A DNA stretch of 61,412 nt, the filler included, from Hausera hauseri (Eukaryota): assembly GCA_046269625.1 (NCBI GenBank). It is 11 parts of 11 records of this genome, joined end to end, with 100 filler letters (N's around TTAATTAATTAA, not from the genome) between each part and the next. Parts side by side here need not be neighbours in the genome. Positions count along the whole stretch, not along the records: positions 6,476 to 12,277 come from JBJURY010186526.1; 10 more parts are not named here. The stretch is one strand, 5' to 3'. The notes beneath the pieces were generated by a model that did not search any database, was not told where the DNA came from, and saw only the letters and a program-made list of their open reading frames with translations. This document shows, piece after piece, positions 1,006-60,352 of the stretch. The stretch's first letter is position 1, and each line of letters begins with the position of its first letter. The position numbers were made by a program, and so were the translations under genes.

Positions 1006-3250
1006 TTAAAAGACAGAGTACGGTGAAACAACGCCGTCTGCCAAGTCCTGGCGAAAGCCAACCAAATAATTGCGCAACATCGGGTGAGGATGTAACATAA
1101 GAGTGAGCAGAATATTTGACAAAATAAAATTAATGCGAATTTGATTTTGTTTCATACGTCCAAATTTCCCAAAGAACGTTTCAGGGAAATGACCAACAAC
1201 AGCATGTCTAGTTAGTTCCGGATTGCTGTAATAAGTGACAACCATTTTCAAAGCCATATCCGAATTCTTTGGTGAAACATTGTCATCAATTGTTATAATA
1301 CTCTGTAATGACGTGATTGATGTTGTTGGCTGTGGAGGCCGCAATGGATGTGACTCATCTTCCTTTTTTACTTGATTACTGTCAGCAATAATTCTCAGAA
1401 CTTCTTCAAGTGAAGAGGAACAAGATCGAAGAATTCGTGAGTTTACCTGGATGGATTCAAGAGACAATGTAAAGTCTTCGAGTTTTTCGGATTTTGCTAT
1501 TTTATCTAAGTCATCCATAATAATGCCAGAATCGGATGATGATAATGAATCGGGCACAGGGTTGGACTGAACCTTTTTCACAAGTTTGTCGTTCAATGTA
1601 ACACTCGTTTCAGTTGAGGCATCGTCATTTCCGGAGAAATCAAGCATATTATAACTGATCGTATATAGAGACTTCTGTTCCTGAATATTTTCAATGCTCG
1701 GGTACCGGAGTTTGTGAATCAACGATCCAACTGGGAATCCGATTCAAATTTCATAGGTGTTAATGTACTGGCATTGATACTTCGAGATAGTTGTGAGCGC
1801 GGTGTAAAGTTAGAAGAATCCCCTGAATCAAATGATGAACTGCCTACAGTTCTTACAAATCTTGGAGTACTGACTGAGTTGGAATTTCGTCGACGAATAT
1901 CTTGTTTCAGGTAACTGCGAGTATTGATCGAGAAAACCATGAGATGGTTTTTTAGTTTGCATTACGATTGTGTCTAGTGTCTTTTCCATATAGTCAAGTG
2001 ATGGATTAATTCCATTATAGTCAAATTGCGACGTACTTTCACATACTCGGTGACATTTTCAATGGCCATTCGAGTGAAATCGAGAAGTTCTGTGTCGTAT
2101 GTTTCAGCAACAGGAAAGAAATTGGGTCGCAATCGAAGAAAAAGAGAAGATACTTCAAACATAGAATCACGACTAACAACAGAGTTTCTGTACTTTTTAG
2201 ATAAATGTCGACAAGGAATAAGATAACGAAATATCTGTTCAAAAATAACATTTTCACAATTTAATGATAACATAGTTTGAAAGAGTGACAGGGTGGAGAC
2301 ACCCAACCCACTTTTTGAATTCGATGTATTTATTAGCGACTGGAGTATTCGCTGACCTTCATGATTTTCACCAATTATAAAGCATGGAAACGGCTTTAAT
2401 ATTTCCGCTTCAGTAATTGATCGGAGAAATAATCCAAAGTATATGGTATGCGAAATTACTTCGTCCAGAGTTTTTCGATTCAAAGAAGGTCCAGTGACAG
2501 GTATTAAAAAGCAATTATAAATATAATGTGTAACGGCTTTACGTATTAGAGAATGAGACACTTGATTAACTTGGCGACAAAGACGCAGATAGTCAAGAAA
2601 GTGCTGCAATTGTGGACATGTTTTAATGAATGTGCTATTCAGTTGGTCGAGCAACACTACATGACAGAAATCTGGCAGTTTTTTCGGAAGATTGGAATTG
2701 AGCGCACTGAGAAACGTTGGCAGTACCGGACAGAAATCGGACTGAAGTGCGGTGCTGTATGCAATGTCTTCATTTGTAACAGTTAACGTTAATAGGAGTA
2801 AAACGGTATCTCTGGTCTCTTTACCCAAATGACTGTCTCTGTGAAGAAGCGGGATAGGAGGGTTAAGAAGCGGAAAAGGATCTCGGAAAATTGATAAACT
2901 GATTTCACTGCAAGGATTTTGCAATAGAGGTTCATTACTGACTCGCACGCACATCAGCTTCAGCAAATGAACGAGGGCGATTTCCAAGTGACGGCTTGGC
3001 CTAATGTTGTATTCATTAAGAAGACGGAGTAATTGTTCAAGAAACGCTCTGTCGAAACGCACTCGGGCGATAGTAGCCAATAATTGCTGCAAACAGACGT
3101 AAATGTTGACGTTTCAGTCGTTCCAATCATCCCCAAAATGGTGGAAACTCGAACCGTAAATATTGTTGAACAAATCTTCTTGAATTGAATACGTAAATAT
3201 TGCAGAAATATTATTCTCAGATGTCGATGAATTTTCCTCAGTTGGTCTCA
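1006..3250 (-). pseudogene. FHIP1: FHF complex subunit FHIP1/FAM160A-like (RAI16-like family), apparently intronless, with frameshifts and stops
   Basis: ORF 1974-3092 contains SDFCPVL, YIYNCFLIPVTGPSL and LSLFQTMLSLNCENVIFEQIFRYLIPCRH. ORF 1006-1722 ends MKQNQIRINFILSNILLTLMLHPHPMLRNYL. Both match remembered FAM160A conserved blocks. The coding sequence is broken across three frames. Confidence 0.85.
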
Positions 3251-6375: not shown

Positions 6376-6475
6376 NNNNNNNNNNNNNNNNNNNNNNNNN
6401 NNNNNNNNNNNNNNNNNNNTTAATTAATTAANNNNNNNNNNNNNNNNNNNNNNNNNNNNNNNNNNNNNNNNNNNN
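6376..6475. other. Artificial contig spacer N44-TTAATTAATTAA-N44
   Basis: An identical 100-nt spacer recurs 10 times; TTAATTAATTAA puts stops in all six frames. Confidence 0.98.
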
Positions 6476-7406
6476 TGGAGGTATTTTGAGTTCTATTCTC
6501 GTAGCCTCGTTCTTTAGTATTATCATACAATCTCTTATTATTTCGGTTCCTATTACGATTGTCACCATCATTATTCCGTTCAAATCTATCGCTCTGTTTT
6601 GCATATCTATCTAATTCCATTTCTAAATTTTGCGCTAACTGTAATGCAGTCTCAAAATTGTCTGATCGGGCTAAGATTAATTGCTTAACTAAATCTCTGG
6701 ACCATATTTTGTTTATTAACTGCGTCATCATCATGATGCCTAAATCTGGTGGGCTAGACTTTTCTGCAGCTTCAATTCTGCATCTGTCTTTACTTTAGCC
6801 GCGTTAGCTATCCTTAATGTATTTACATAACTATTAGCAAGTTTCTTTAATGCAAATGCGAAATGAGTAACCGATTTACCCTTTTGTTGGGTTGTATTCT
6901 GAAAAGCCATAAGCTTCTGTTGTGGCGTAACTCTCGGCAATAGCTTTTGGTTTAGGGCTCCTACTACAGAGGACCATGATTTCTTTTCATCGTTTGTAAG
7001 TTCACTATAGGCATGTGCAGCCAGATTATATCAAGTATAGAGACAATCGCTTAATCATAACTTCGGGCGCAAGGCCGGCACTTTCTGCATGCAATTTGTA
7101 AGTCCTCAGAAAATCATTTAACCCATCCGAGTCTCCGTCGTATGAGGGTAAATTTAACGAGTCGAGCGTGAATATATCAAGTATATGAGCTACTGCTGAG
7201 TTTTCTGTTGCCATTCTTATTCTATTTTGTCTGTCTATTTTAATTCTAGGAGGAGCTTTAAATTCTTTAACAGAGGTTAATTCAGTATCAGATAAACAGT
7301 GCTTATCGATTATCTTATCCTCGATGTAAAGCTTATTTCGAGTTTCTCTTTGATTACGTTCTTCTATGCCGTTCACTAATAAGTTTTGATATGAGTCAAC
7401 TATCAA
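6476..7406 (-). pseudogene. gag: Ty3/Gypsy family-1 gag (capsid-like domain followed by an Arg/Asn-rich tail)
   Basis: LPSYDGDSDGLNDFLRTYKLHAE..KRLSLYL..QQKGKSVTHFAFALKKLA is a retrotransposon-gag motif set. It lies directly downstream of the LTR and PBS and is homologous to 47757-48650. Confidence 0.85.
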
Positions 7407-7550
7407 TATTTGCTCTCAATTCAATTTTTAGTTAATTTCCCTCTAACCACTTATAATCCCACGTTTAAACTTTTAACTTATATCGTATAACAATTCGCCT
7501 GTATGTCTTTACTTGGCTCTCAAGAGTAATGTATAGCGATGCACAATCTG

Positions 7551-7567
7551 TTCTGCTAGGGTCGCCA
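7551..7567 (-). promoter_or_regulatory. Primer-binding site TGGCGACCCTAGCAGAA (possibly complementary to a tRNA-Arg)
   Basis: A TGG-initiated motif immediately after the LTR and upstream of gag. The tRNA identity is tentative. Confidence 0.7.
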
Positions 7568-7569
7568 AA

Positions 7570-8276
7570 TATTTTACAGTTGGGTGGTCCTTACCGTCTC
7601 CCACTATAACAATAGTTTATTTCAAGTTAAATTGCTTTTCAGCAGGTTAGGATTACCCGTTATTGAGTAATCTGCTTGTGCCTTAATAAATTTAGATAAT
7701 TTATGCTGTACTGCTGGTACTTCGTGCGGTTTAAATGCTTGTATTAGTTTATAAAATTTCAACTTAACTATGTGATTTTAAGTATAATTTACCCTTATGG
7801 TAGTCAAATCGTCCTTAAGAGATGATGAAAAACTATATAGGGATTTTAATAAACAATTTTAAAATAACCTTTATTCGATACACAGATTATCACAATAATT
7901 TCTCTAAACAAGAACAGTTCAAAATGATAGCGTAAGTAACAAGTCTTTGTCTTGGAATTTAGTTGTCCGACTTTAAGTCGTACACTGATTTCTGAATTCT
8001 AGTGGTTGGCGTACTGCTTATATATATTAGTAGCTTCAGTTCTATTTACATGTTTATAATACTATTCAAACAATTAAATTGAATTTTTCTATGTTTTAAT
8101 GTGTTTTCACTCATTTCTTCCATTACCAAATAGTTAGTACATATTTTGGTAATCCGACAATTCCATTATTAATATTTACAATCTAAATTCTTCGGAAATC
8201 TAATATTTACAATTACTACTTAAGTAAACAATTCGAGTCTTCGATTTCTTGATTGTTTACAATCCATTATGTTACA
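7570..8276 (-). repeat. Family-1 LTR (~700 bp)
   Basis: Begins TGTAAC at 8276 right after a polypurine tract and ends just before the PBS. Contains a TATA-like TATATATAA (~8018-8026) and a downstream AATAAA (7870-7875) on the minus strand. The end near 7570 lacks the canonical CA. Confidence 0.75.
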
Positions 8277-8288
8277 TCTCTCCTCCCT
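8277..8288 (-). promoter_or_regulatory. Polypurine tract AGGGAGGAGAGA
   Basis: Purine run abutting the TG start of the LTR. Confidence 0.8.
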
Positions 8289-8508
8289 GAGCGGTATCCT
8301 CGGAGGAGCCTATTGCGTCAGAAGAGGTGGCGCTTGACGTTCTCGGTCATCTTAACTGATTCATTCTTTCTGGTAGATATGAGGGTAAATTTCTTCGATC
8401 TCCATTGGTTATGGGGTTTATTTCCAAATTGTAGCTGTGATAAGGCTTGATCCGAACAATTCATGTGTAACTTCCATCACAGTAATATTTTAGTTCGGTG
8501 GCCTCTGC

Positions 8509-8643
8509 TCAAAATACTGGACATGTTGCTTTTCCATTGTCGAGTGTCCATTTTTCCATGCAATCTCGGCAGTATTTATGGCGGCAATTGTGGTTATCTA
8601 ATACCACATATCCTTGCCTCAAATTTGCGTCGCACACAGGGCA
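8509..8643 (-). pseudogene. C3HC4 RING finger at the 3' end of the family-1 accessory region (not in the ORF track)
   Basis: Manual translation gives CPVCDANLRQGYVVLDNHNCRHKYCRDCMEKWTLDNGKATCPVF*A. Seven of eight Zn ligands are intact, and TTT-TGA is one substitution per codon from TGT-CGA (CPVCRA). Confidence 0.85.
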
Positions 8644-10710
8644 TTCGCTATCTTTTTTGTTCCAATCATCTCTGTCTAAGTCGAGGTTTTATAACGGTTA
8701 AGTATAATTCAGTCCCATCTCTTTCTCGAATAGATACCTCGATCGGTATTCCATATCCATCGTCTCCTCTACCGTAGTTCGTGGCCAGAATCCTTATATT
8801 GCGACCGTCTTGAACTAACCTATACGATTGTAGATGTTCATCCTTTTCTGCCTCTGTTGGGGTTTTTTCGAACTGTAGAACTGGCAAGTCTAATTTGCAT
8901 TTCTTTTTATAAGTCATTTCAAACATCAGTTTAACCGGTAAGGCTGCTACTCGAAATTCTAATCCATAATCAATAGCTTCTAAGCCTCGTCCGCTTATTC
9001 TAAACGTGCTAAATTGGTATTGATGCCCTTCGTTACAATCCCATTGCTTGTTCTTTATTTTGTAGTAAACTTCTCCGTCGACCAGATGAATAAATATATC
9101 TTCCACTTGGGCAGTTCTATTCTGTATTAGTTCCTTAAGATTATACGATTTGGCTTGATTGTTACCGCGCATCGCGTATATCAGAATTGTGCGACTCCTT
9201 TAGGTGGTCCCTTTTAAGTCGTTGGGTATTTCATTTACTTTTCGATATTCGACATATGCTTCTGTCCGTAGTGCGTCATTTATTCTTAGGTATATGGCTT
9301 TAGATTTGAGTATAAAAACTGTTCCATATGTTTGTAAGAAGTCGCCGATTCTAGGTCGGCTGCTCGCACTTACCATTCTGAAAGAAAATGCAAAATAAGG
9401 GTCAATCCTAAAACAAAGTATTGTTCGAAATTTGAATCCATTCTTTGTTTGATAGTGGAATAACCCTATCTATAGTTTTTTCTATTTTAGCGGTAGTCGT
9501 AGTCTCATCCTTTATTTTCTCATAAATGAGTGGTTTCGTTACGACAATCTCGTTTAAGGTTCCTATTGTGAATACTCTACCTTGTTTATTCTCTGCACCC
9601 ATTTGTATTATATAGTCTGTTTTAGGTTTCAATCTGATACATTTGATTCGGTAGTTGCCTTTTGACAGTGACACCTTTTGATTATCGTGTATTGTTTGGC
9701 AGCTTATTTCTACATTGTAGTTAAGTGTTTCCTCCACAATGAACGTTATTTCGCGCTGTTGTGCCCAATATTTTATAGGGATTATTTCTAGATTCTGCTA
9801 AGACGATTTATTCGTTTGAATGATTCTGATGAGTGCAGTAGTAGTAGATTTTGTTTTTGTATTCGTCGTCGTTTCAAGTGAATTCGGCTTGATTGAATTT
9901 CTAAATCGGTACCTTCCTAGATAAATACTCGACTGGTTTGGTTTGACATCATATAAGTCTAACTGAATTCTATATTTATATTTTTGGGGTAACTTGCAAC
10001 ATCTTTTCGGTTGCTCGACGTCGATTTGACAGTACTGTTGGTTATGAGCTGGTATGTTCTCCTTCAGGAATCAGACTGAGATCACTCGACCGTTAATCAA
10101 TCGTACTTCTGTGTTTATTTGAACACAATTGTCCTTTGGATTTTCTGTTATACTTTCGATATTTTCTTCCAGCATCCGCTTTACTGAATCAAAGGACTGG
10201 AGTATTTCGTTGCGTTTTATCCCATGATGCTTGTTCCAAGCAGGGATAACTAATTGAAATTGTGGTTCTATTTCGTAGATTCTAGATGATTTCCGTGAAT
10301 ACATTCGGTAGGTAATGTTATAAGTATGTCCAAAATCCGCAGTGCAACATTGCGTATGCTTTCAGGCTCGAAATCACAATTTATTGTTTTTTTTGTCATT
10401 ATATCATCTAGGGCAATTTGAAGTCTTTCACCATTGTGGTGTGGTCTCTGTACTTTAAATCCAACGCATGTGGAGTTTGGCAAATAATAATGAATTTTGA
10501 CTGATTGTAACAACGTAATTCCTTCTTGCCTTGGGATTTCTTCTAATGTTGGTATCCTTTCCGTTTTATTAACCTCTGGTTTAAATCCATTTTTCTGCGC
10601 TCCGTATACATTTTTAATGTAGATCCGTCGTGCCACCATTTAGTTTGTTCTCTCGGAATACAAGAAGCAATTATCGATAATGCTAAAACTATCTGCACAT
10701 ACGATATGGG
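8644..10710 (-). pseudogene. Family-1 post-integrase accessory protein: signal-peptide-like segment, Cys-containing beta-rich/FN3-like domains, Thr-rich linkers
   Basis: Hydrophobic YVQIVLALSIIASC (10640-10701) follows the integrase. FN3-type motif CIRLKPKTDYIIQMGAENKQG at 9579-9641. TTTNTKTKSTTT and ETTTT linkers. Homologous segments occur in contigs C and J. Confidence 0.7.
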
Positions 10711-12277
10711 TCTGGTGATAATCGACGAGGTCTTGTTTTCTCGCGGTCTTAGATTGTAATGTTTAGCTGGCCTTATAACGGTTTTAACTACTCTTTGAAT
10801 CAATACCACTTCCTCTTTTCCATTTTTATTGATATAAACCGTGATTGGTGTTGTACGGATGATTTCATATGGTCCTCTTCCAGTAGGTGTTAATTTCAAG
10901 GATGTACCTTTCTTCGCGACTGGGTAATGTAGGCAAACCCCATTTCCCTTTTCCAGATCATGAGGCTTAGTCTTTTTATCGTATTGTTTTTTAAATTGTT
11001 CCTGGTATTCGAGTGATAATGTTTTCGCAACCTCCCAACACTTTTGTAATCTTGTCTGTAAAACTTCGGCAAAGTTTTGCTCTAAATCCTTGAGATTTTT
11101 TTCATACGGCGTCATGCCTAGATCGGCAGGTAAGATTGCCTCTCGTCCATACATCATAAAGAACGGTGTGAACCCTGTTGCTGGATGTGGAGTCGTACTA
11201 ATCGCGAATTGTGTTCCATCTGGGAATTCATCCCAATCCTTTTGATTTTTTGCCACTACTGTTGATAGTATCCGAATAACTGTTGCGTTCATTCGCTCAA
11301 CCATTCCATCACATTGGGGATGGCACGCGGTAGTGGTTAGACGTTCAATTTCAAATATTATGATAATCTTTTTTAATAGTTCGCTTGTGAAGTTCTTTCC
11401 TCTATCAGTTAGAATTTGTTCTGGTGGTCCATATCTGCAGATGATTTTTCTTACCACTACGTCGGCTAAAGTTTCTGCCTTTTGGTGCCACTAGTTCTAC
11501 GAAGTGCGTTAGTCGGTCCACACATGTCAGGATATACCTGTTATTTTATGAGTTTTAGGCAAGAGTCATACTATATCCATAGATATGGCTGACATGGGCT
11601 TATCTGGTACATTTATGGGTTTTAATTCTGCTACGTAGCCTTTCGTCTTCTTTTGTTTTGTCGCGCAAACTTTGCACGCTCCTACCCAATTCTTTACATC
11701 AATATAAATACTTGTCCAGTAGTATTTATTCAATATTCTTTCCAATGTCTTCTTCCAGGATATATGTCCGGCTATATATGAATCATGTTCGGCCATGAGT
11801 ACTTCGGTGCGCAACTCTTTTGGAATAACTATTAATCTTCGTCTCTTCCGTTCGTAATACAGGATATTATCCTGGTTTTCGGCGTGATATTTATGTCCGT
11901 GTTTTTGCAGGTGCTTCTTCAGTTGCCGTCCCTTGGGTATATCGCCGTTTTGTGCCAACTTAACAATTTGATGATTAACTTTATCTTGGGCTTGCTCGGC
12001 CGTAATTCTAATTGTCTTATCTATTATTAGAGTTTGTTGTCGTTCGATTAGTTGTTCGAGTTGCGGCTTTTTTGCTATAGTAATTGTACTCGATTTTGTC
12101 TTAAGCCTTGATAGTGCGTCAGCGTCGACGTGTTTATTTCACGGTTTGTATTGGAATTCAATGTTATATCGTGAGATCTATTCAATCCAACGGTTTAATC
12201 TACATGTCGGATTATTAGCTCGTCCTTTCAATGTCGTAACTGCCTTGTGGTCGGTTACTATAATAATCCTTTGTCCA
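10711..12277 (-). pseudogene. pol: Family-1 pol, 3' part (end of RNase H, HHCC zinc finger, DDE integrase, GPY motif)
   Basis: EHDSYIAGH..CKVC, SMDIV, ILTDRGKNFTS, HPQCDGMVERMN, GRGPYEI. Confidence 0.95.
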
Positions 12278-17358: not shown

Positions 17359-18476
17359 CTATTTTCTCGGAAAGTGCAATATTCTGGGGTCGTTGAGAGG
17401 CTGTCGATAACACATTTTCCTAAGGACTCCGTAACGTTTTGTTCCTTTATAAGGATCTCCTAAACTAATTGTCCTTTTATAGATTTCTGTCTGATATAAA
17501 CTCATTGATTGTTTGTCACAGTTTTCGTAGACTGGAGCGGTAGGGGGTAGCATAGGCAATGGTGCCTTAACGACAGAATACATCTTATGTCTGTTTGTTC
17601 CTGAAAGTACTTCTCCTCCCTTAGGCTCGTCATCCTCTGAATTATTTCTTCGCGTATTAGGTTTTGTAAATTTCCGCTTGTACAATAACATAGGCCTTCC
17701 TTTTCGTTTACGATTATAATAACCGACATGGCGTTCTACGTCCGAATTCCATATATTTTCTTCGTATGCTTTTAAGAACTTTCCAAAAGGTGTTATGATT
17801 GCAGTCAGTATTTTGCATGAAAATCCGGGCAATGTAAATATTTCATACCCATTAATTACTGCTTGGATGACTGCCTTAATCATTTGTATCAGAAAATATA
17901 TCGCTAAGAATCCGGATGCGGCTTGTCCAAAAATCAAAAATCTTCCCAAAATTTTGTAGAGTATTTTTGTAATTACTCGCTAGCAATGGTTTACTCCAAG
18001 CAAGGATTCCTATTTAGCTTGATATCGAGTATCGTGTACTACGGAGGCCATAACTCGGTTTAATTCGTGTGTTCGCTGTCGTAAAAAAGCGAGGTATTAT
18101 CTGAAGGCTTCGATTTCCTTAAGCCTATATATGCCTTTTGACGAGGTGTCTTGAAATTTGTCGTCTGTAATTCCTTTTGAAAGATTTGTTCCTGTTAATT
18201 TATTTGGAGCAGCAGTAATATTTCCATTTGGCAAACTGGCCCAATCTGTTTCACTACGTCTATCATGGGTTCTCCTAAGCTTGCTTTATAATCCTTAAGG
18301 ATTGTTTGTTCAGTTGCATTGTCTAATAGCACTCTAGTGAGTGGCATAGCTAACTTTGGAATATTCTGGTAAATCACGGGAAGTTCCTGCATGCAGCGTT
18401 TTTCTTCAACGTTGATTGGTGCATCTCTTTTCTCACATTCGTAAGTCAATAGTACTTCACCGGTAACTCGACCAAA
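17359..18476 (-). pseudogene. env: Chuvirus-like class III fusion glycoprotein (C-terminal half, TM region and basic cytoplasmic tail) upstream of the protease
   Basis: GRVTGEVLLTYEC..CMQELPVIYQNIPKLAMPLTRVLL, KGIYRLKEIEAFR.YLAF and GRFLIFGQAASGFLAIYFLIQMIKAVIQAVINGYEIFTLPGFSCKILTAI follow the motif series I recall for chuvirus glycoproteins (AGEVxHIIKC, CYxELPV, GIYxxEDL..HIMFP, FGxxSAG..IHGYALH.VYGWS). Confidence 0.8.
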
Positions 18477-40479: not shown

Positions 40480-43400
40480 AATCGGGGCCTGCCTATGTGC
40501 CCGACATACCGGCAGCAGAAAACCCGGCCGTGCCCAACCAAATGGGCCGGGGGGTGACGATCGATGCGGGCACTACATCATCCCCCCCGTGGCAAAGTTG
40601 AAACTACAAAGAACAAAAGATAGAGAGAAAAAAGCGCAAAACAAAAAATGTGTGTGTTAGTTAAGCTTAGTGTGTATAAGGCGTTAAATACCTTCGACTG
40701 ATTTTTCCCTACTATATTGGCTGAATGTGACTCTGCGTGTTTTGTGTTTGTGCAATGTGTTTGTTTGCAGAGATCGAGATTGGAGAAATATGTTAGATTT
40801 TGGTGTAGGTGTTGTGTCGTGCGAAGATGAAGGAGAAGTTGAAGAAGGTGAAGAGGAAGGTGAAAAGGAAGAGTGATTGTTGAAGATGTAGGGTTAAAGG
40901 TATTGAAGAGTGTTAGAAGACGAAGGAGTGATAAAAGGTGTAGTGGTGGATAAAGGAAGAGAAGAAAAAGTTGGGATAAAGATTGGAGTTGTGTTGCGTG
41001 AAAGAGTGGAAGAAGAAGATGATACAGGAGGAGTGGTAGAGGTAGGATGAGTGGTAGGAATAGAAGGAGGAAGTGTAAAAAATGGTGGAGCAAGACTTGG
41101 CGCGGGAGAGGAAGGTGGAAGTGGTGTAGCAATAGATGTAGTGGCAGCAGAGAGTGGAGGAGTATGAAAAAAGTTTGGCGTGTCGGTTGGTAAGGTGTCA
41201 TCGACAAAAAAAGCTGGTTTTAGGTTGGTGATGTGTACTGTGAAGTCTTTGCCGTGCTCGGATATGATGGCGTTATGCGAGTGCAACTGTATAAGTTTAT
41301 AGGGCCCCAGATACCGTGGCTGGAAACCGCAAGGAGCTTGATTCTTTAGCCATACGAATCTTTGTGAAGTATCCTGCAAAACGCATCTTTGCTGACCTCG
41401 ACGAAGTGATTTTGTGCCGCCCGTATCGTCTCGTCTGTGGGAATGTCGTCTAAGGTGGTTAGGTCGAATAATGAGCGGACAGGAGCTTCAAATAAGGCTT
41501 CAGTAGGTGAGTATCCTATAGAGATGGGCGGAGTGTTCCGCCTGCCAAGCAGAACGAACCAAAGAAGATTAGTCCAACTACTGTTGGACTCTGCAAGAAT
41601 TCTAAGTAATGTTTCAGTGTGCGGTTAAAGCTTTCTAAGAGGCCATTCGATTGGGGATGAAAAGGCGTAGTATGAACGTGGTGAATCCCAAATTGGTTAA
41701 CAAGGGATTTGAACAAGTTGGATTCAAATTGTGGACCTTCGTCCGTAATGATGAAGCGAGGTGATCCAAACCTGCTAATCCATGTGCGAATGAAAACGTC
41801 AGCTATGGTGTCGGTGTTTGTGCTCCGCAGAGGGATTGCTTCTGGCCATCGCGAGGAACGATCCATCATGGTGAGGATGAATTGATAACCGTTGTCTGGA
41901 GGAACAGGGCCAACAATATCGATATGCACGGACTCGAAACGCGATGTGCAGGGAAAGTGGAACAGTGGTAGCTTGAAATGCTTAACTGTTTTGTATTTTT
42001 GGCGTGCCACACACTCCGTTACCCATGCCTGCACATCAGAACGCATTGAGGGCCATATTACTTGTCGATGGAGGAGACGAAAAGTGGCTTTAGCACCAGG
42101 ATGATGTAATAAATGCACGTTGTGAAATGTTTGCCTTTGCAATGAAGGTGCTAGAATTATTACTGGGTGGCCTGATTTGGAGATGTCTAAAGCCACGCCG
42201 TCAACGGTTGTGCAAGATTTAAAAGACTTAAGCATGTCTGGAGGTGGCTGGTTCTGCTGAAGTTATTCTTGCGTAAAGATCGGAGAAAAATTAATCGAAC
42301 TAACCGACCTCGATAAAAAATCAGTAACTAAATTGTTAACTCCGTTAATATGTTTAATATCAAAATTAAATTTCGGCAAGTATAATAATTGCATTTCTTG
42401 ACGTGTGGAAGGGTGTTTCATGGGCGTGATATTAGTTAAAGGCTTTTAGTCACTTTTTAGAGTGAAATGATGAGCGACGAGTAAGTGTGAGAAATGTTTG
42501 AGGATAAGAACGATTGCCAATAGTTCTCGATCGAACGTGGAATACCTGGTTTCAGGTGCGGTTAGTTTGCGAGAGAAAAATTCCAGTGGTTGGTTTTCTC
42601 CCTTGTAGATTTGGTACAGCACAGCGCCTACTGCGGTGGTTGAGGTGTCTGTAGTGAGGATAAGTTCTGCATCAGGTTTGGAAAAGGCTAGAATATCTAC
42701 GGTTTTGACGCCGTCACGTAGTTTGTCGAATTTGTAAACCAATTCAGGTGTACATTGGATTTGTTGATGTTTTTTGCCGCCACTTAGATGTGCGAATAGA
42801 GCTGTCAATTCCGAGAAATATAGCACATATTTATGTAAAAAGTGGAGTGTGCCAAGAAAGCTACGCATTTCGGTGATCGTACGTGGCAACTGAATGTTTT
42901 TAAGAGCTTCGACTCGGTCTAATTGGGGGAATGGCCTTCTGGTGTAATAACGTGGCCTAAAAAGTTAATGCGTTTTTTGAAAAATTGGCATTTGTCAAGA
43001 TTGATTTGTAGATTATGGTGGTGGAGACGTTGAAATATTGCGCGAAAGTGTTCTTTGTGTTGTTTGGCCGAAGATGAAACGACTAGGATGTTGTGGATAT
43101 AAGGGTGTGCAAACGGGAAATCAGAAAGAATGGAATCAACGTGCCGCTAAAAAGTTTGTGCAGCATTCCGCAAACCGAATGGCGTAAATAGATATTCGTA
43201 TAGGCCAAAAGGAGTAGTTACTGCGGTTTTTTTAATGTCTTCGGGTGCTATCGGTATTTGATGGCATGCTTTAGCTAGATCAATTGTTGAATAAATGGTG
43301 GTTGAATTAAGGCGATGCAAGATATCCTTGACGAATGGTAAAGGATATTCGTCCATGATAGTCAAGTTATTCAGCTGCCGGTAGTTAACGCATGGTCCAA

Positions 43401-45830
43401 AGGTACCGTCCATTTTTGTACGACGTGTAACGGTGATGACCAAAGAGATTTGGAACGGCGTGCGATGCCGAAACGTTCGAGCTCAATAAATTCGGCTTCT
43501 ACGGCCTGTCTACAACGAGGTGACAGAGGTCGTACATTTTGGCGTATTGGACGTTGGTTCTGTGTGACTATGTATTGCAAAGTGTTGTTTGGGGGAGTAA
43601 AGGAACGGTCTTTTTAAGTACGCGTGGACAACATATGTTGACGAACTGCTGTAAAGTTGTAGGTAACTGTGAAAATTTGGTGAAAGTGGTGGAGCTGTTT
43701 GAGTGGTAGCAGAAGCAATTTGTGAGTTGTTAAGTAATGTACAGTTACGTGGTATTTGGTGCAAGATTGTTGAATTGAAAATGGTGTTGGCTGAAGTATT
43801 TTCGTCGAATGAGTGGACGTTGGTAGCAATACCACAATTGTCGACATTGAACTTCGATCGAATGTCAGTATTATTGTTTAAAAATTTACTAATAGAATTA
43901 TTAAGAAAATTTGAATTAATCGTTGATTTTTTTAAGATAAATTTCCGCCCCACCGTCGACTGCACGGTAGTCAAAACGCTATTTACATGTCCAGAAATGT
44001 CGCCAACAGTACCTTTCCTTAAACATCGCTGGCTGCAGTCAACCAGTAGGCTATAGTGTGAGAGAAAATCAGATCCTAGGATTGCCGACTGGACGTTAGC
44101 GACTGTGAACGACCAGCGGAAAGATGTAGAAAAATTTGGTAATGTGAAAGACAGTGTAGCCGTGCCCGAGATGTGCAGCGGCTGGCCTGAAGCAGTATAT
44201 AAAGGCTTCAGTTTTTATGGAGAATTTTGTGTAGGAAAGGTTTGCGGTAATAGAGAAATTGCTGCCCCTGTATCAATAAGGAAGTCAAGAGATTGAGTTG
44301 TATGGGCAGTGATTGCAGCCTTTAGCGTGAATACTGCAAAAGAGATGTGTCGGCGGTCAGAATGTGAAAGAGTGCCTTTGCCAGAGTTTGCCGTGACCTC
44401 TGGCGACGAAGTTAGTATTTTTGAAAAGATGAACTGGAATGACTGTGAGAAGTGAAGGTAGTACGTCCGTCGTTCGTGTTGCATTTGAAGGTACAGCCGG
44501 TGATACATTTACGTGCTTGATTTTTGAATCTTGCATGGTAAATGCAGAAAACGGTGTCCGAGGTAAACTTCTGGTTATAAAATTGGCAACCGAGGCAGCA
44601 TTTCTGAGCATTAGTGTTGAATCTACTGTGGTAATAGCAGATCGACGAACGTGCAGGTGATGGTGAGCGGTTTCGTGACGTAGAACGGGTACGCGAAGCG
44701 GCAAAACCCCCTCGTCAGGACAAAGACAATTCATTTAATTTATTATTTATGTTGTTGATAGTTGCCTGCAATGCAATATTTTCAGCACGTAGCTGATTAA
44801 GCTGCTGTTCTATGGACGTGTTAGTTGTTTGTATGTCGCTTGCGGCAACTGCTGCTGAAACTACTGGTTGCGAGTTTATGTGTAAGACATCGTATGTCCT
44901 ATCTGCCAATTTGGCCAATTTTTCAAGATGCGTGGAGTCTCCCACCACGGTAAGAAGGGCCCGGATTTGGATAGGTAGGGCATGCAGAAAATAATGGCGT
45001 AGAAAATCCGGGTTATGTTCCTTAGTGACGCCAAGAGTATGCAAGTGTGCTAACGAGGTGTGTAAGAAGTCACTGGGTTTTTGTATGCCCAGTGCATTTT
45101 CGGTAAAGAAACCCTGCATTATGGAGTCAATGGAAGGTTCGGTCTGTTTTAATACAGCGTCAAATAATTGGGTATAAGGGTCAGGGTGATGGAAGATGTC
45201 AAGTAAGTTATGGATTGAGGCTTTTATGGAATTTTAGAGAAGATAGAGTAAGCTATGGGCTTTAGATAAGGGGTCTGTGATACCATTAGACTGTAGCCAG
45301 AGTTGGTGGAATTGAAGCCAAGTTTTACTGGACTTTATTACCTATGAAGTAGTCGGTACAATGTGTAGAAGTATGAACTGGGTTTTTGTCGGAAGAGTTT
45401 GTGTCGGTTAAAATCGGTGGATGATTTGGTTTGGTGTAGTAGAGGATGGTTATTGGCTTTTTTGTGGTGGTTGTATCCGTGGTGTCAGTGATTGGTGGAG
45501 AGTTCATTCCAACACGGATAAGGGGAGTATGTTGAAGCAAGCATGATTTGAAAAAGAAGGTAAAGTTTCATTGAGGTGTATAATAGCGCCGTTTAGAGTG
45601 AGATAGAAGTTTCAAGAACCAAGGGACGAAGAAATACGGGTCTGAAGGGTGGGAATGTGTGAGTGTGTAGTATGGAGGGTATATATGTGAATGTTGTTAT
45701 AAAAAAAGTAAACGAAGGTGGGAGCAGTGGTGCGCCTGGGGCCTGACTTGGGGCCAACGCCGAAGGCGCCATCCGACCAACCGACGCAAGGTTGGCGGCC
45801 GGAACCTCCGCCCCGCACGGCCGGCATGAA
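40480..45830 (-). mobile_element. Near full-length decayed Ty3/Gypsy family-2 element (gag-PR-RT-RH-IN)
   Basis: gag LGIQKPSDFL..LEKLAKLADR plus two CxYHxRF..KC..C knuckles; protease FLIDTGAAISLLP; RT TIDLAKACHQIP..PFGLRNAAQTF; RNase H LTTDTS..FDRELLAI; integrase VHIDIVGP..ITDEGPQF..HPQSNGLLE; PPT (40581-40588) followed by LTR start TGATGTAGT at 40580. Confidence 0.93.
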
Positions 45831-45969
45831 AATGCAGGGTGCCCGAGTTTCCCCTCGAAGCGCGCAATATCGGGATGTTATCTGGTATAGATATTTGGGA
45901 TATTTGATGAAAGATTGGAATTCTGTCAGAAATTTGATAAAAATGCGAATAATTTGTAGTTGGTTTCAT

Positions 45970-46495
45970 TAATCCACATCGCATAATACCAGTAATTTCC
46001 TTAAGACCATCTACATTATTTTCTAAGCATTTTGCATCTCCAAAGTCACCAAGTTTTGCGCGGCACATATTGGTATCCTCGACCTTTACTAAAGATATAT
46101 TATCGGGTTTGATATCACTATGAACAATTTGACTGTCATGTGAATATACAAAAGCCTTTAAAACCTGTTCTTTCCATTGTCTAATGATAAAATCTTGGAT
46201 ATCTCGTATAGTTATTTCGGGTAGCAAACCACTATCGCAGTGTTCGGTAAATATTCGAACCTGACTGAGACTGATATCAACGCCATAATATTTGATAAAT
46301 GACGAATGATTTAATATACAGAGGATGTCGTATTCGAATGAGTTATGAGTATAAGGTTTAATGATAACAACTTCTTTCATGGCTATTATTTTCATCGTAT
46401 CCAAGTTGCATACTTTAAAAACCTTACCGTATCGACCTTGTCCGATAAAACTTGTCTTAACCCATTGAAACGGTACTCGTTTAACGTAATGTAAT
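45970..46495 (-). pseudogene. MAP3K4: MAP3K4/MEKK4-like Ser/Thr kinase fragment (subdomains I-VII), intronless
   Basis: KRVPFQWVKTSFIGQGRYGKV..IIAMKEV..YYGVDI..IFTEHCDSG..IVHSDIKPDNI..KLGDFG..LENN closely follows MEKK4. HRD is changed to HSD and the fragment stops after DFG. Confidence 0.75.
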
Positions 46496-46561
46496 TTATC
46501 CGTTTCGCTACTAGAACAGTACCAGTTTTGAACAGTACCCGTCAGCTTATGAACAAGACAT

Positions 46562-46671
46562 GTTCTCTTTCTTTTATCCTTTATAGTTCTAACTTTGCCA
46601 CGGGGGGGGTGATGTTGTGATCGCGACGACTGTTGTCCTCCGGCCCATTCGGTTGGGCACGGCCGGGTTTT
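46562..46671 (+). repeat. 3' leader, PPT and LTR start of another family-2 copy (inverted relative to 40519-40630)
   Basis: AACTTTGCCACGGGGGGGG-TGATG..CGGCCCATTCGGTTGGGCACGGCCGGGTTTT matches the reverse complement of 40519-40600. Confidence 0.85.
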
Positions 46672-46771: not shown

Positions 46772-47680
46772 CGAAATCACAAAGAGAGGCTTCACGAAAT
46801 TTTGGAATTTCATAAATCTTCCATTAACAGAATTTTGAAAGAAAGCATTTTAAAGCCATTCAAATTTACAACTGATGAACACCTGAAAGATGATGACAAA
46901 CCCGAGTGCACTCAGTTTTGCCAACTTGTAATTAAAAATAACTTACGAAAAAGACGGAGTTATAAAAATTGTGTTACACTTGAATGGTTTGAAAATTCAC
47001 CACAATTGTTTTTATTGTTGCGAACAAAACGAATTTAGGGAAAACAGTTCATGAAAAATGAAATCATAGTCAAATAACACTCTGGGCAATCGACCAAATA
47101 ATTCAAGAAACAATGAATGGAAAAGATATGCAGACATTTTGAGTGAAGTTGTTATACCTACCATGACATAAATCAGATATATTCATCATTATTTTCAACA
47201 AGACGGTGTCCCTCCGCACTTTTCTTTGATATTCAGAGAGCTATTGCTTCAAATTTACATAATCGTTGGATAGGAAGAATGGGATCAATACAGTGGCCAC
47301 TGCGTAGTCCCGATTTGTCTATAAACGACTTTTGGTTATGGTGGTATATGCGCGATAAAGTTTATGAATATCCCCAAGCTACAACAATTGAGGAACTAAT
47401 TCAACGCATGGAAAAAAATTTGCTACTATTAACCTGAGGATGGTGAAAAATGCCTTCAAAAGCTTTGTTAAAAGGTGTAAGTTATACATCGCCTATAACG
47501 GTAATCATTTTGAAAAATATTTATAGCCATAATCACCATCAATTATTAATTAAATAAAGATATTATTGGATGGAGAAGTCTTCCCAAATTACCACCGAAA
47601 TAAATTAAAATAACAAGCCTTCTTAATTATCAATCATAAATTATGACAATAAAAATTGCGGGATCAGCTGGATCACCCTG
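46772..47680 (+). mobile_element. Tc1/mariner-superfamily transposon of DD41D (rosa-like) type, 3' part
   Basis: FQQDGVPPH..RWIGRMGSIQWPLRSPDLSINDFWLW. The spacing between the last two catalytic Asp codons is 122 nt (41 codons minus 1 nt). Ends ..CACCCTG followed by TA (47681-47682). Confidence 0.88.
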
Positions 47681-48650: not shown

Positions 48651-49079
48651 GTTGACAGAGTGGGTCGAAATAGAAATTTAGTTTGCTTTACCTTAAGTTT
48701 GCTTTAGTTAAGCTCAGACACTATTAACTGCGTTAGAAACTAACCATAGGTTGAAAAGAGTAGTTCGTAATTTAGAACACATGACGAATGGAATCAGATG
48801 CGCAATGATAAATCGGCTTAAAGAGAAACCGGTTAATCATCGAAGCAACATTGATTTAGAAATATTGGGTATAGACCACCACTTTAATGGAAATGATAAA
48901 AATTGCTTTCGCAGTACCAAAACGTTATACAAACTTAGAGGATCGTATTAAAATTGAAAATAAAAAGAAATCACAGATCTACAGTTTAAGGAATCGGATT
49001 ATGTTTGTAAATAATGAAGAGACAAGATACAAAATAAAGACTCGTATTTTGAAATTTGACGAATAAACGGATGAATTTA

Positions 49080-51281
49080 ATTATGATTGCCGGATTATGA
49101 ACTTTAAGAGGTCCCGATGATGAATCAAAAGACGCTTATAAAACGCAAGAAAAGGCGATATTGGCAAAGCCCGTAATAGCTAATCAACTAACGGAATGGT
49201 CCGAGTTAATATCGAAACTAACTAATCCAGTGGAAAGTCGTAGGGAGGATTTTCAGGAAAGCGAGCCTACAGTTAAGAAACAACTAGAGAAAAGCGCACG
49301 GAATCTAATACAATGAGAGCAGAAGTAGATATCCGGACTCAATTCGATGCATTACGGCAAATGAATTTCATAAAAAAGAAACGAGAACTGGCGATATTGG
49401 AAGAGATATAAAATGATCGAAGAAACAAACTTTGTAGAAAAGCGAAATATGATTTGCAACTTCTACCCAAGATTAAGAAACATCCGTCTAGAAGGAATCC
49501 AGCATTTAAGCGCTAAATCTATTGATAAAATCACAATTCGCGATCTCGAAACTTTGAATATTTGTCCGGAACATAGAACAGCTATAGAGGAAGCAATGAG
49601 ATTCCTACATAAACCACAGGAATATATGGCCGTGGCAGATCAAAATTGCCATACTGAGTTAACAAAAATAAGGAACGACACTCATCTCGGTTTTGAAGAA
49701 GGTAAGTTCGTGAAGAAATTGCTCGATGCGACAGACCCCGATTCAAGAATTCTTAATGAGATGTACGAGTTAACACTAATGGTAGAAATGACAGAAATTA
49801 ACAATGAAAAGATGAGATAATTGATGTCTCAAATACGACAGGCCGAAGAAACGTGCATTAGAACTAAACAAAGAGTAATAAGATTAGACGAACTAACAAA
49901 AGAGCTCGAAATTTATCGGAACAAATATGCTTTTACTGAGTCAGAAATTAATAGGAAGATAGAATTTGTACAAAGATGGCAAAGGGATGTAATTATCGAA
50001 CTGACTATCATCAAAGAGGATTCATTCCTGCTAACAAACTGGACAAACTGTTAAAACTTATCCAGTATGCTTGTGGAAACGGAATAGGTTTCCGGACCAC
50101 ACAGATGAAATAGAGCCGAGGTTAAAGGAAATTCTAGAAAACGTACAAAGAATGAGTACAGCGATAGTAGACTATGGACTTTCAGAAATCGGAAACGATC
50201 CAGAATGGGATGCCTATTTAGATGCGACAAATGTTGAAAATCCAATGACCAGTACGGATAAATGAACCAGAAATATGTCCGCGAGGTAGGAGGTTCAATG
50301 TGGAGATACTCTTGGACTCAGTGCTAACTGAGAGGGATTTAATCGAATTAATTAATGTAAACATAACTGAAAATAAGTTGAGACAGCTTATTCCGACTCT
50401 AACTGAATTATCCAGTAAGAACACGGTTTACAGCACAGTACCAAAACTACATATGCATATGTGAAGGATCTGAGAGTGGTTGATAAACAATGGTGAAATA
50501 ATTGAGTTAAGCTATAGATTCTACTTTAGAGGTAGGATACTGGACGACTTAGAAAAATTAATAGACGTCGGGATTATACCCGATGAAACAAACCGGATAG
50601 TGGCCGTAGTAGCCAACGAGCAGACTAAGGAAGAAACCACGCGTAAGGCTAAGACCAAACAGTGCGTAGGATAAATTATGGAAGTCCGAGACGCTGCAAT
50701 GTACTTCGAGTATTTGCAGACGGAAAAGGATAGGGAACAATATGATAAGAACTTAGTGTCATTAAGCAGAATAATAGCAACTACCCCTAGACATAAACAT
50801 CCGGTCGGCAAACCCAAGACATGAGAAGAGATCGATTATAATGGATAATTGATTAGAGAACTGCGACAGATGTCCATTCCGACTTTCAGCGCAGAGAATG
50901 AAGAATTGAACGAATTAATGAAGAATTTAATACGCATCGTAAATCACTCAAACCTTGAAGGCGACACGTTAGATGATAATGAGAAAGCGATATTTAACGT
51001 CGCTAGAACAATGAGAAACTCCCGCTTCAAATTATCGAAAAGTAATTTGACCGATGAATTGGCGATTGAAAAGATCATGGTGGAAAACACGATAGAAGAA
51101 CTAAGAAAAATTTTACTGTATTTAGCTATTAGGACAAACTCTATTCGGGAGAATGAAATTAATGGAGCTGAGCTTGGCACGGAAGGCGGCTAGAAAACTA
51201 CCCCAAGAAGTATGTTGGTCAAAATTTCTCGATAAAGAAGATAAACGACCCAATAATAGTGGCCGATTTGAAGACATGCTA
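49080..51281 (+). pseudogene. Long decayed ORF of unknown function downstream of the family-1 gag
   Basis: A chain of same-strand ORF fragments (49413-49820, 49821-50054, 50071-50265, 50480-50674, 50849-51193), Glu/Ile/Leu-rich, with no protease or RT motifs. Confidence 0.55.
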
Positions 51282-58657: not shown

Positions 58658-58699
58658 GATCACGAACCGGTCTTTTGTTGTTTATCAAAGTCGAAGCCA

Positions 58700-60352
58700 G
58701 TGTTTCAAGGTAGTTTTGATGCTATACCAACAGCTATTGTTGTTCCACAACCTCCAGCATCACCCGAATGTTCTACTCGGCCTATGAAAAAGCGTAAACT
58801 GAACCCGGTATCTTTATTAAAAGCAACTCCAGTTGAAAATGATACAGCCTTTGTTGTGTCTCCGACGCCTACCAGAGATATAGAAGTTGTCGATGGCTTA
58901 GACTGTGAAAAAGAGACATTTAAAGCAAAAGTAAAACGAAGTGAAACATTCGAAGTTTTACGTACATTTGACGTTTCTGAAACAGGGCCAACCGTTGATC
59001 TTCCTTCAACTTCAAAAACTGCAGAACAATTATATGCTGGCTATCTGAGTTCTGATGAAGACCTACTCACCTGCGATTGTGATCAAAAGGTATACAAATA
59101 TACAATTTTTCCATTCACTGATCACAAAGATCAATATTATGGGAATAGTTCTTATTTTTACAGAGATGTTGTTGAATTATTGAAGAAAACTGAAAATCCG
59201 GAATATGTTCCGAGTCCATCGTATCAGTATTCGTACATAAGCGACTTGTGTATTGGACCGATTGTCTTGTTACGGGAAGACACAGCCTATGATGATTTGA
59301 ATGCATGTGAAGACATTGATGAAAGGGTGTATGATTTGGTATATGAAAGAATGTTTATTCATCGACAGGCTTTATCTGACTTTTATAATGAGCACGAAAA
59401 TCAATTTCATTATATCCACAGGGCAAAAGTTTTGTATAATCACGTCTTTGTGCCAAGATTCGTCCATTCAGCACAACGAGACAGTGACAACTCCTTACAG
59501 GAGGAATTCACAGATGTATACGCACGAAGAATCTACAAATGGACAGACTGGTCGTATGCATTCAAAGACCTCAAGATTGTCGAAGTCAGACCTGAAGGTG
59601 TGGCTTATTCACCCAGCGAGCCTCCTTATTTTATGTGTCCAGACATTACTAACAATCTACGAACTACATTGCTTAGACTCAGGTCAAAAGATGACACACT
59701 GATCATCAGTGTCTTTGTACCTGAAATCTGGAATTTTGACAGACCGACTCCAACCAGAATTGAAAGGCTTGATTTCAAGTCGAAACTCTTCGATAGATCT
59801 AATATTTATCGCGATGGCTGGCCACAACCGTTTCTGGTACCAGCCTTTCCCAACCAGTTTGACACTTCAGACCTCATTAGCATAAAATGCTACACTTTTC
59901 TGTTAGATCTGTTGCATCAATGTGATCCTTGGCAAGGTCCAAATGTTCATTGTAGAACAGTGAAAGAAGAAATAAGTAGATTCCATGAAAATGTACGTTT
60001 TACCTGGCGACACAGTATGAAATACCTTATTGAGGGTGTTTTTGAAAAATGTAATAATTTCAGAGACGAGCATCACTATTCAGCTCAGTTTTGTTGCCAA
60101 ACAAAAGATCAGGCGTATGAAATTGTTGTCTGCAGTTATTTTCAACCATATGTTTTAGCCTTTTTACCTTTGTTGTTTGCTTTGAAAAAAATTCACAAAT
60201 ACACATCTCTCAGTGATCTTGCTATTACTTTCAGGTATAGCACGTACTGTTTCGAACAGTTCTACTACAGTTTGGCATGGCTCTATGATGATGGACACAG
60301 ACATATTATAACACTGACACCACCAGAAGGCCAGCCACCAGCTTTGGTTTAA
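58700..60352 (+). CDS. 550-aa open frame, in frame with the NS1-like helicase; function unknown
   Basis: ORF starts 58067, 58445 and 58700 share one frame. Contains an NLS-like PMKKRKL. No PLA2 or Gly-rich capsid motif seen. Confidence 0.65.
   Translation: MFQGSFDAIPTAIVVPQPPASPECSTRPMKKRKLNPVSLLKATPVENDTAFVVSPTPTRDIEVVDGLDCEKETFKAKVKRSETFEVLRTFDVSETGPTVDLPSTSKTAEQLYAGYLSSDEDLLTCDCDQKVYKYTIFPFTDHKDQYYGNSSYFYRDVVELLKKTENPEYVPSPSYQYSYISDLCIGPIVLLREDTAYDDLNACEDIDERVYDLVYERMFIHRQALSDFYNEHENQFHYIHRAKVLYNHVFVPRFVHSAQRDSDNSLQEEFTDVYARRIYKWTDWSYAFKDLKIVEVRPEGVAYSPSEPPYFMCPDITNNLRTTLLRLRSKDDTLIISVFVPEIWNFDRPTPTRIERLDFKSKLFDRSNIYRDGWPQPFLVPAFPNQFDTSDLISIKCYTFLLDLLHQCDPWQGPNVHCRTVKEEISRFHENVRFTWRHSMKYLIEGVFEKCNNFRDEHHYSAQFCCQTKDQAYEIVVCSYFQPYVLAFLPLLFALKKIHKYTSLSDLAITFRYSTYCFEQFYYSLAWLYDDGHRHIITLTPPEGQPPALV

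Follow-up and report, generated by a model that had tools for sequence, protein, structure and literature searches.

Errantiviruses with an HSV/gB-type env, described from Nematoda, Bryozoa and Platyhelminthes, carry a gB/chuvirus-type env before a Ty3/gypsy pol, as does the element family of Hausera hauseri analysed here (PMC13524379, available sections). The main text of that survey contains no occurrence of RING, ubiquitin or fibronectin, and in its available sections neither a Pol extension nor a 3′ accessory ORF was encountered, unlike at this locus. A 3′ accessory ORF (ORF3) with a DnaQ-family exonuclease is present in the LTR elements Juno and Vesta of bdelloid rotifers, and in this respect they resemble the element described here (PMC5408684, available excerpts). 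The ORF3 domain, however, is RNase D-like of the DEDDy type with intact catalytic residues, comes without a RING (0 occurrences in the excerpts) and replaces env, whereas the domain found here is DnaQ/RNase T-like, apparently lacks the catalytic acids, is joined to a RING and occurs alongside an env (PMC5408684).

Burro, a giant gypsy element of planarians, likewise has env between gag and pol, and cargo tied to ubiquitination (PMC6431247, available excerpts). It differs in encoding one polyprotein of 4,900-5,100 aa with MATH, BIR, BCL2, ankyrin and ubiquitin-like domains and an F-type env (PMC6431247, same excerpts). None of these cargo domains (MATH, BIR, BCL2, ankyrin, ubiquitin-like) had a Pfam match in the pieces scanned here; identity with Burro was rejected because the env here is gB-type and BIR, MATH, BCL2 and ankyrin matches are missing from those pieces, and identity with Troyka was also rejected. 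In Osvaldo-lineage (Isis-like) gypsy elements the annotated RING is part of Gag instead of a 3′ accessory ORF, and has no exonuclease-like partner (PMC3630058, available text); a figure legend in PMC12910113 names a RING as well. The initial annotation of this DNA, which had called RING domains not standard Gypsy cargo, was therefore right on that point, although the Osvaldo-lineage Gag (PMC3630058, available text) means that they are not without precedent.

Outside retroelements, PML (TRIM19) combines, as does the ORF described here, a RING and a DEDDh-like pseudo-exonuclease in one protein, and its catalytically dead exonuclease module binds nucleic acids (PMC10123124 and PMC13659232, parts of each). 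PML is a vertebrate host restriction factor with an N-terminal RING, B-boxes and a coiled coil, whereas here the domain order is reversed (PMC10123124 and PMC13659232, the same parts). In P0002, an 870-aa homologue introduced below, there is no B-box match in Pfam and no PML match, and the RING is C-terminal, so the PML/TRIM layout is absent; the likeness is best regarded as analogy, not homology. RING domains are E3 ubiquitin ligases, and many DNA viruses use them against host defences. Known viral RING-HC ligases, namely poxvirus p28 (KilA-N plus RING, with a nucleic-acid-binding partner), HSV ICP0 and baculovirus IE2 and PE38, come from large DNA viruses and resemble the accessory ORF by RING type, without a sequence link. 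In the literature searched we found no description of a pseudo-DEDDh plus RING accessory ORF in an LTR element, although such an ORF is possibly annotated elsewhere, for instance in Repbase or GyDB.

The element family and its surroundings

The window, by which we mean the whole stretch of 61,412 nt from Hausera hauseri (GCA_046269625.1), consists of 11 contigs of 4-7.5 kb with N-padded spacers between them. A ten-fold periodic 'repeat' (D1, at 6376, 12278, 18477 etc.) proved to be the N44-TTAATTAATTAA-N44 joiner between contigs and was discarded as an artefact. The features on which the analysis rests are as follows.

6476-12277: contig 2 (JBJURY010186526.1), with the RING and the element studied here on the minus strand
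10546..12138, minus strand: integrase with H2C2 zinc finger and rve core (Pfam Integrase_H2C2 E 1e-17, rve E 6e-4)
9408..10710, minus strand: C-terminal extension of Pol, a signal-like hydrophobic stretch followed by a region with Cys residues, probably a beta-sandwich, that includes an FN3-like repeat; stop at 9410-9408
9378..9410, minus strand: splice-acceptor-like site just after the extension stop, made up of a branch-like TTGAC, a pyrimidine tract and a TTTCAG whose last base is 9378
8819..9376, minus strand: N-terminal domain of unassigned fold of the accessory ORF, with one stop at 9202; 71/175 identical to P0002
8669..8818, minus strand: first part of a putative DEDDh/DnaQ-like pseudo-exonuclease, cut by a deletion; 26/50 identical to P0002
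8669..8688, minus strand: deletion junction with frame change; P0002 residues ~287-735 (~450) absent
8512..8643, minus strand: degenerate C3HC4 RING finger with 7/8 zinc ligands, Phe at the eighth position and a stop right after
8272..8508, minus strand: rest of the accessory ORF after the RING, including its C-terminal tail, with stops at 8463 and 8349; ends in QGGEM, then stop
8277..8288 (read 8288-8277), minus strand: polypurine tract (PPT), AGGGAGGAGAGA, with TG at 8276 directly after
7605..8276, minus strand: probable LTR, starting TGTAAC, with AATAAA at 7621-7616 and a presumed end at TGTTATA
6476..7214, minus strand: start of a gag of the same family, after the LTR (Retrotrans_gag E 0.003, below cut-off)
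17362..18476, minus strand: gB/chuvirus-type env of a sister copy in contig 3 (Pfam Monjiviricetes_fusion E 9e-13 and 8e-5)

Along the minus strand of contig 2 the order is thus integrase, in-frame extension, further coding region, RING, PPT, probable LTR and gag. Of the LTR hallmarks, the PPT and the TG are present together with a single LTR ending in TA; no PBS was assigned, and blastn found no second LTR copy in the window. From 8276 to 6476 (minus strand) the 3′ end of the element passes through this single LTR into gag, as would be seen either in tandem copies with a common LTR or in a collapsed assembly.

Sister copies of the element lie in contigs 3 and 10 and are 70-72% identical to contig 2 over ~1.9 kb (70% for the pol of contig 3; sister copies in the window are 70-77% identical). 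Together the copies give the pol order PR-RT-RH-IN, with RVP (below cut-off), RVT_1 and RT_RNaseH in contig 3 and Integrase_H2C2 and rve in contig 2. In contig 3 env precedes the protease, RT and RNase H domains, which gives the family an env-before-pol order, and in contig 2 no Monjiviricetes_fusion match occurs between pol and the LTR. The gag of contig 2 is 74.7% identical over 545 nt to a gag in contig 9. Because a gB-type env stands upstream of PR-RT-RH in contig 3, the family is most simply read as a GAG-ENV-POL Ty3/gypsy element, gag and env being on separate contigs and joined by family similarity only. The same order has been reported in nematodes, bryozoans and flatworms (PMC13524379, available sections).

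Other contigs hold further features. In contig 9 a broken, helix-rich coding sequence of more than 2.4 kb follows gag (48712-51193, plus strand) without a credible Pfam match, and is a further candidate cargo region, probably between gag and env; upstream of that gag, 47147-47500 (plus strand) is presumably a Tc1/mariner-like transposase fragment. Contig 1 carries an intron-less, broken RAI16-like/FHIP gene (1006-3113, minus strand; Pfam E 1e-35, DUF5917 E 2e-8), possibly a retrocopy carried by an element. In contig 8 a protein kinase domain (45700-46671, minus strand; Pfam E 2e-23) lies directly upstream of the gag-pol of a second gypsy family, and the 6.1-kb block 40519-46671 is flanked by a 108-nt inverted repeat, 82% identical. 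An open frame of 564 aa at 58658-60352 (plus strand) has no Pfam match. Finally, contig 7 (32987-39082) has a CpG observed/expected ratio of 0.31 compared with ~1.0-1.2 in most contigs, which could reflect either another history of methylation or another origin.

A RING-bearing accessory ORF next to the LTR

The initial annotation had proposed a C3HC4 RING about 220 nt upstream of the PPT and absent from the ORF track, and each of these points was borne out. The pattern C-x2-C-x15-C-x-H-x2-C-x2-C-x12-C-x2-F runs from 8643 to 8512 (minus strand), with a stop at 8511-8509 and ~220 nt between it and the PPT at 8288-8277. In the Pfam search of translations it passed the cut-offs of three RING models with E values of 1-3e-7, namely zf-C3HC4 (30.5 bits, cut-off 21), zf-C3HC4_2 (31.7 bits, cut-off 27) and zf-RING_2 (31.5 bits, cut-off 27.3). 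It is the sole match to the pattern in six frames of the 61 kb window, and a stop-free pattern with seven ligands appeared in none of 100 dinucleotide-preserving resamples. The stop-to-stop piece is 59 aa long and has no ATG ahead of the motif, which is why a 60-aa ORF list misses it. With seven of eight ligands followed by a stop, the window copy is a RING pseudogene.

Since both sister copies, in contigs 3 and 10, are cut off before the RING region, outside evidence was needed to decide whether the RING is ancestral cargo. A phmmer search with the upstream frame without the RING (9469-8669) against 1.84 billion representatives returned two matches, each an ENA singleton: P0002 (870 aa, E 5e-45) and P0003 (333 aa, E 4e-42), the latter stopping short of the RING position. 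P0002 holds the N-domain, the exonuclease-like domain and an intact RING (Pfam zf-C3HC4 30.8 bits, cut-off 21; 8/8 zinc ligands) within one ORF ending in QGGEML. A RING that entered the window copy alone as a late insertion, and zinc ligands unconserved in other copies, are the two outcomes that the initial annotation had held against its own proposal, and P0002 speaks against both.

The window RING is identical to that of P0002 at 31 of 44 positions (BLASTP E 5e-27), and P0002 736-869 matches window 8688-8275 in tblastn with E 2e-29. By part, identity is 71/175 in the N-domain, 26/50 in the exonuclease part, 31/44 in the RING, 13/35 after it and 16/36 in the tail. The RING being the best-conserved part (24/36 at non-ligand positions against 71/175 in the N-domain; Fisher p 0.005), it appears to have been under stronger constraint than its neighbours before the window copy decayed. 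In the window the terminal QGGEM and its stop are encoded by the PPT and the first LTR bases, and since the QGGEML end of P0002 matches this ending at the PPT/LTR edge, P0002, which is known from the protein alone, is strongly suggested to come from the corresponding 3′ gene in a related LTR element. By this match the end of the ORF would lie at the PPT/LTR edge in both lineages, which are only ~44% identical. On this comparison the RING appears to be real ancestral cargo of the element family, marking a previously unnoticed accessory gene.

P0002 is the only RING-bearing homologue of the accessory ORF that we found. Word-based protein searches gave no further relatives for the 177-aa ORF among longer proteins (0/263 candidates), for P0002 55-420 (only P0002 itself, 1 of 2479) or for P0002 690-870 among shorter proteins (0/44 at E<=1e-5). 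The window ORF had no usable match in the ESM Atlas, and a prokaryotic genome scan confirmed 0 of 76 pattern matches.

The RING was said to lie one frameshift away from the upstream ORF. The frame change is real, but it is not a simple frameshift: it is the junction of a ~450-codon deletion relative to P0002. The tblastn alignment of P0002 with the window is split into residues 58-286 and 736-869, and the two parts overlap at 8688-8669 in different frames; for the ~450 residues in between, the window gave no match at E<=0.1, and P0003 independently runs on beyond the junction position. Taken together, these results suggest that the window copy lost ~1.35 kb (~450 codons) at 8688-8669, relative to P0002. 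Because of this deletion, the stops at 9202, 8511, 8463 and 8349 and the loss of the eighth ligand, the window copy is no longer functional and could not yield a RING protein.

The N-domain has no Pfam match in the window or in P0002. The domain after it (P0002 ~234-418), absent from the initial annotation, has no match in Pfam and resembles DEDDh exonucleases elsewhere: its only two PDB matches, both modest, are DnaQ (8h18, E 1e-4) and the PolC exonuclease (2p1j, E 5e-4), PHROG 192 matches with E 1e-4 and NCBIfam DnaQ models with E 0.004-0.01, and in the ESM Atlas it is close to RNase_T clusters (0.92) and the arenavirus nucleoprotein (NP exonuclease, 0.91). P0003 had 0 matches in the PDB, and a fold search with two low-confidence AlphaFold models (3-row alignments, pLDDT 31), which is uninformative at that quality, gave nothing at E<=0.001. 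The ExoI D/E residues align to invariant Ala/Asn in 3/3 sequences and the ExoII D to Met in P0002. Since the acidic residues of both motifs are replaced, the domain is predicted to be a pseudo-nuclease, and an active exonuclease was rejected on these two motifs. It is followed in P0002 by a basic linker with KKRR at 547, which we take to be NLS-like, and by a further small domain (residues 601-735) ahead of the RING.

By inspection the P0002 RING retains the Trp of the central helix, the Pro of loop 2 and the Arg that follows the last Cys, presumably the E2-contact and basic linchpin marks of active RING E3s, and its PDB matches are E3 ligases, among them RLIM, listerin and RING1B. On these marks the intact domain is likely to be an active E2-recruiting ubiquitin ligase.

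Pol extension, predicted splicing and topology

In 3/3 copies the signal-like stretch continues the reading frame of the integrase end (KD 1.8 at 10710), and the extension that it opens is conserved at 36-42% identity across contig 2 (10710-9408), contig 3 (13600-12378) and contig 10 (51780-51382), all on the minus strand. Its likeness to FN3 is weak: both PDB matches are FN3-type (contactin-1, E 0.13; monobody, E 0.56), Pfam fn3 has no match in the extension, and the extension ORFs as single sequences gave nothing credible against the PDB. The extension probably includes a secreted part, and a secreted decoy released from the Pol end is possible.

Continuity of the RING with this FN3-like region was not supported. 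The extension ORF ends in a stop at 9408, and an acceptor-like site and an ATG come next. Under a strong criterion (at least 12 of 15 pyrimidines, then YAG) the acceptor at 9378 is the sole such site on the minus strand of the 5.8 kb contig 2, and the candidate ATG at 9376, 2 nt past it, opens the frame homologous to P0002, a protein that does not resemble the extension. After the acceptor and 4 further nt (AATG) comes a donor-like GTAAGT (9378-9368, minus strand), where P0002, P0003 and the window all read Val-Ser; a micro-exon or a recursive site is possible, and real splicing may be more complex than modelled.

The initial annotation had seen no clear TM segment between the signal-like peptide and the RING, and we agree: no TM-like stretch occurs at 10650-8270, and the highest score of a 19-aa segment across all frames there is 1.33. 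A decayed TM segment, one of its two suggested explanations, finds no counterpart in P0002, which has none beyond residue 19. The predicted start of P0002 is a hydrophobic 19-mer (KD 2.07), missing from P0003 (maximum 0.88) and from the window (1.01); it could be a real signal peptide, or it may be a translated Phe-rich pyrimidine tract. Because the extension ends in a stop, an acceptor and an ATG follow it and no TM segment intervenes, the simplest reading would be that the region encodes a Pol extension, part of which is probably secreted, and, independently of it, a soluble accessory protein translated from a spliced RNA. The other explanation in the initial annotation, that the RING belongs to a separate cytoplasmic product, is thus the favoured one.

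Proposed role and alternatives

We consider it fairly probable that a gB-env GAG-ENV-POL Ty3/gypsy element carries a dedicated accessory gene at its 3′ end and that the RING is the C-terminal domain which this gene encodes; the product would be a soluble E3 tethered to nucleic acid. The predicted layout is N-domain, pseudo-DEDDh exonuclease, basic KKRR linker, small domain, RING-HC and a short tail ending at the LTR. Quite likely, judging from the acceptor at 9378, the gene would be expressed from a spliced subgenomic RNA entering there, with a soluble product, cytosolic or nuclear, and with such a product the topology puzzle disappears. The intact RING would, as argued above, likely act by recruiting an E2. 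More tentatively, and by analogy, the dead nuclease domain may bind element RNA or cDNA and so recruit the ligase to silencing or restriction proteins of the host on these molecules.

The main rival to a counter-defence E3 is that the RING serves as a structural zinc or dimerisation module, or as a ligase acting on the element's own proteins (Gag/Env sorting, budding). That the family carries an env, that retroviral budding uses ubiquitin, that non-ligase viral RINGs exist (e.g. arenavirus Z) and that the arenavirus NP exonuclease is among the Atlas neighbours of the exonuclease domain all lend it some weight; the E2-contact residues kept in P0002 and the nuclease-like domain with its basic cluster, suggesting work on nucleic acid rather than at membranes, make it somewhat doubtful. 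It is highly unlikely that the RING is the cytosolic tail of a receptor-type ligase with the signal/FN3-like extension as ectodomain and a TM segment since decayed or deleted. The signal-like stretch in frame with Pol in 3/3 copies and the hydrophobic first 19 residues of P0002 would suit such a receptor, but P0002 has no TM segment from residue 20 to the RING and no similarity to the extension, which largely refutes it; moreover, the extension ends in a stop and then an acceptor, and a pseudo-nuclease and a basic cluster precede the RING.

A neutral passenger, that is, transduced host gene fragments at the 3′ end without a role for the element, could be argued from the host-like fragments in other contigs (RAI16-like, kinase), the dead window copy and the few homologues found. 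We judge it very unlikely, given an ORF end tied to the PPT/LTR edge in two ~44%-identical lineages, a RING better conserved than its neighbours and an open 870-aa frame in P0002. Instead of a deletion in a genuine copy, the short step from N-domain to RING might also reflect a mosaic assembly or a naturally shorter variant, as short contigs of a repeat family and a 3′ end-LTR-gag run like that of collapsed repeats would allow. This, too, is unlikely: the junction halves the exonuclease domain and is out of frame, chimeras are less likely because sister copies are only 70-77% identical, and the family-level conclusion stands either way.

The accessory gene thus remains our preferred reading, and its product could have a counter-silencing role. 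A broader proposal, which we regard as speculative, is that a lineage of env-bearing animal LTR elements encodes a nucleic-acid-guided E3 of reversed PML-like layout from a spliced mRNA, by which host silencing or restriction proteins bound to its RNA or cDNA would be destroyed, together with a secreted FN3-like decoy from the Pol end. To our knowledge, the means by which animal LTR retrotransposons withstand silencing by piRNA/RNAi and chromatin are still largely open, and few counter-defence proteins of their own have been described. P0002, a natural, intact 870-aa protein with a conserved RING-HC and a predicted dead nuclease, is a directly testable counter-defence candidate. If the proposal is true, a Metaviridae element would have an accessory set in the style of complex retroviruses, with the ligase built in rather than hijacked, and invertebrate env-bearing elements would carry accessory genes as complex retroviruses and DNA viruses do.
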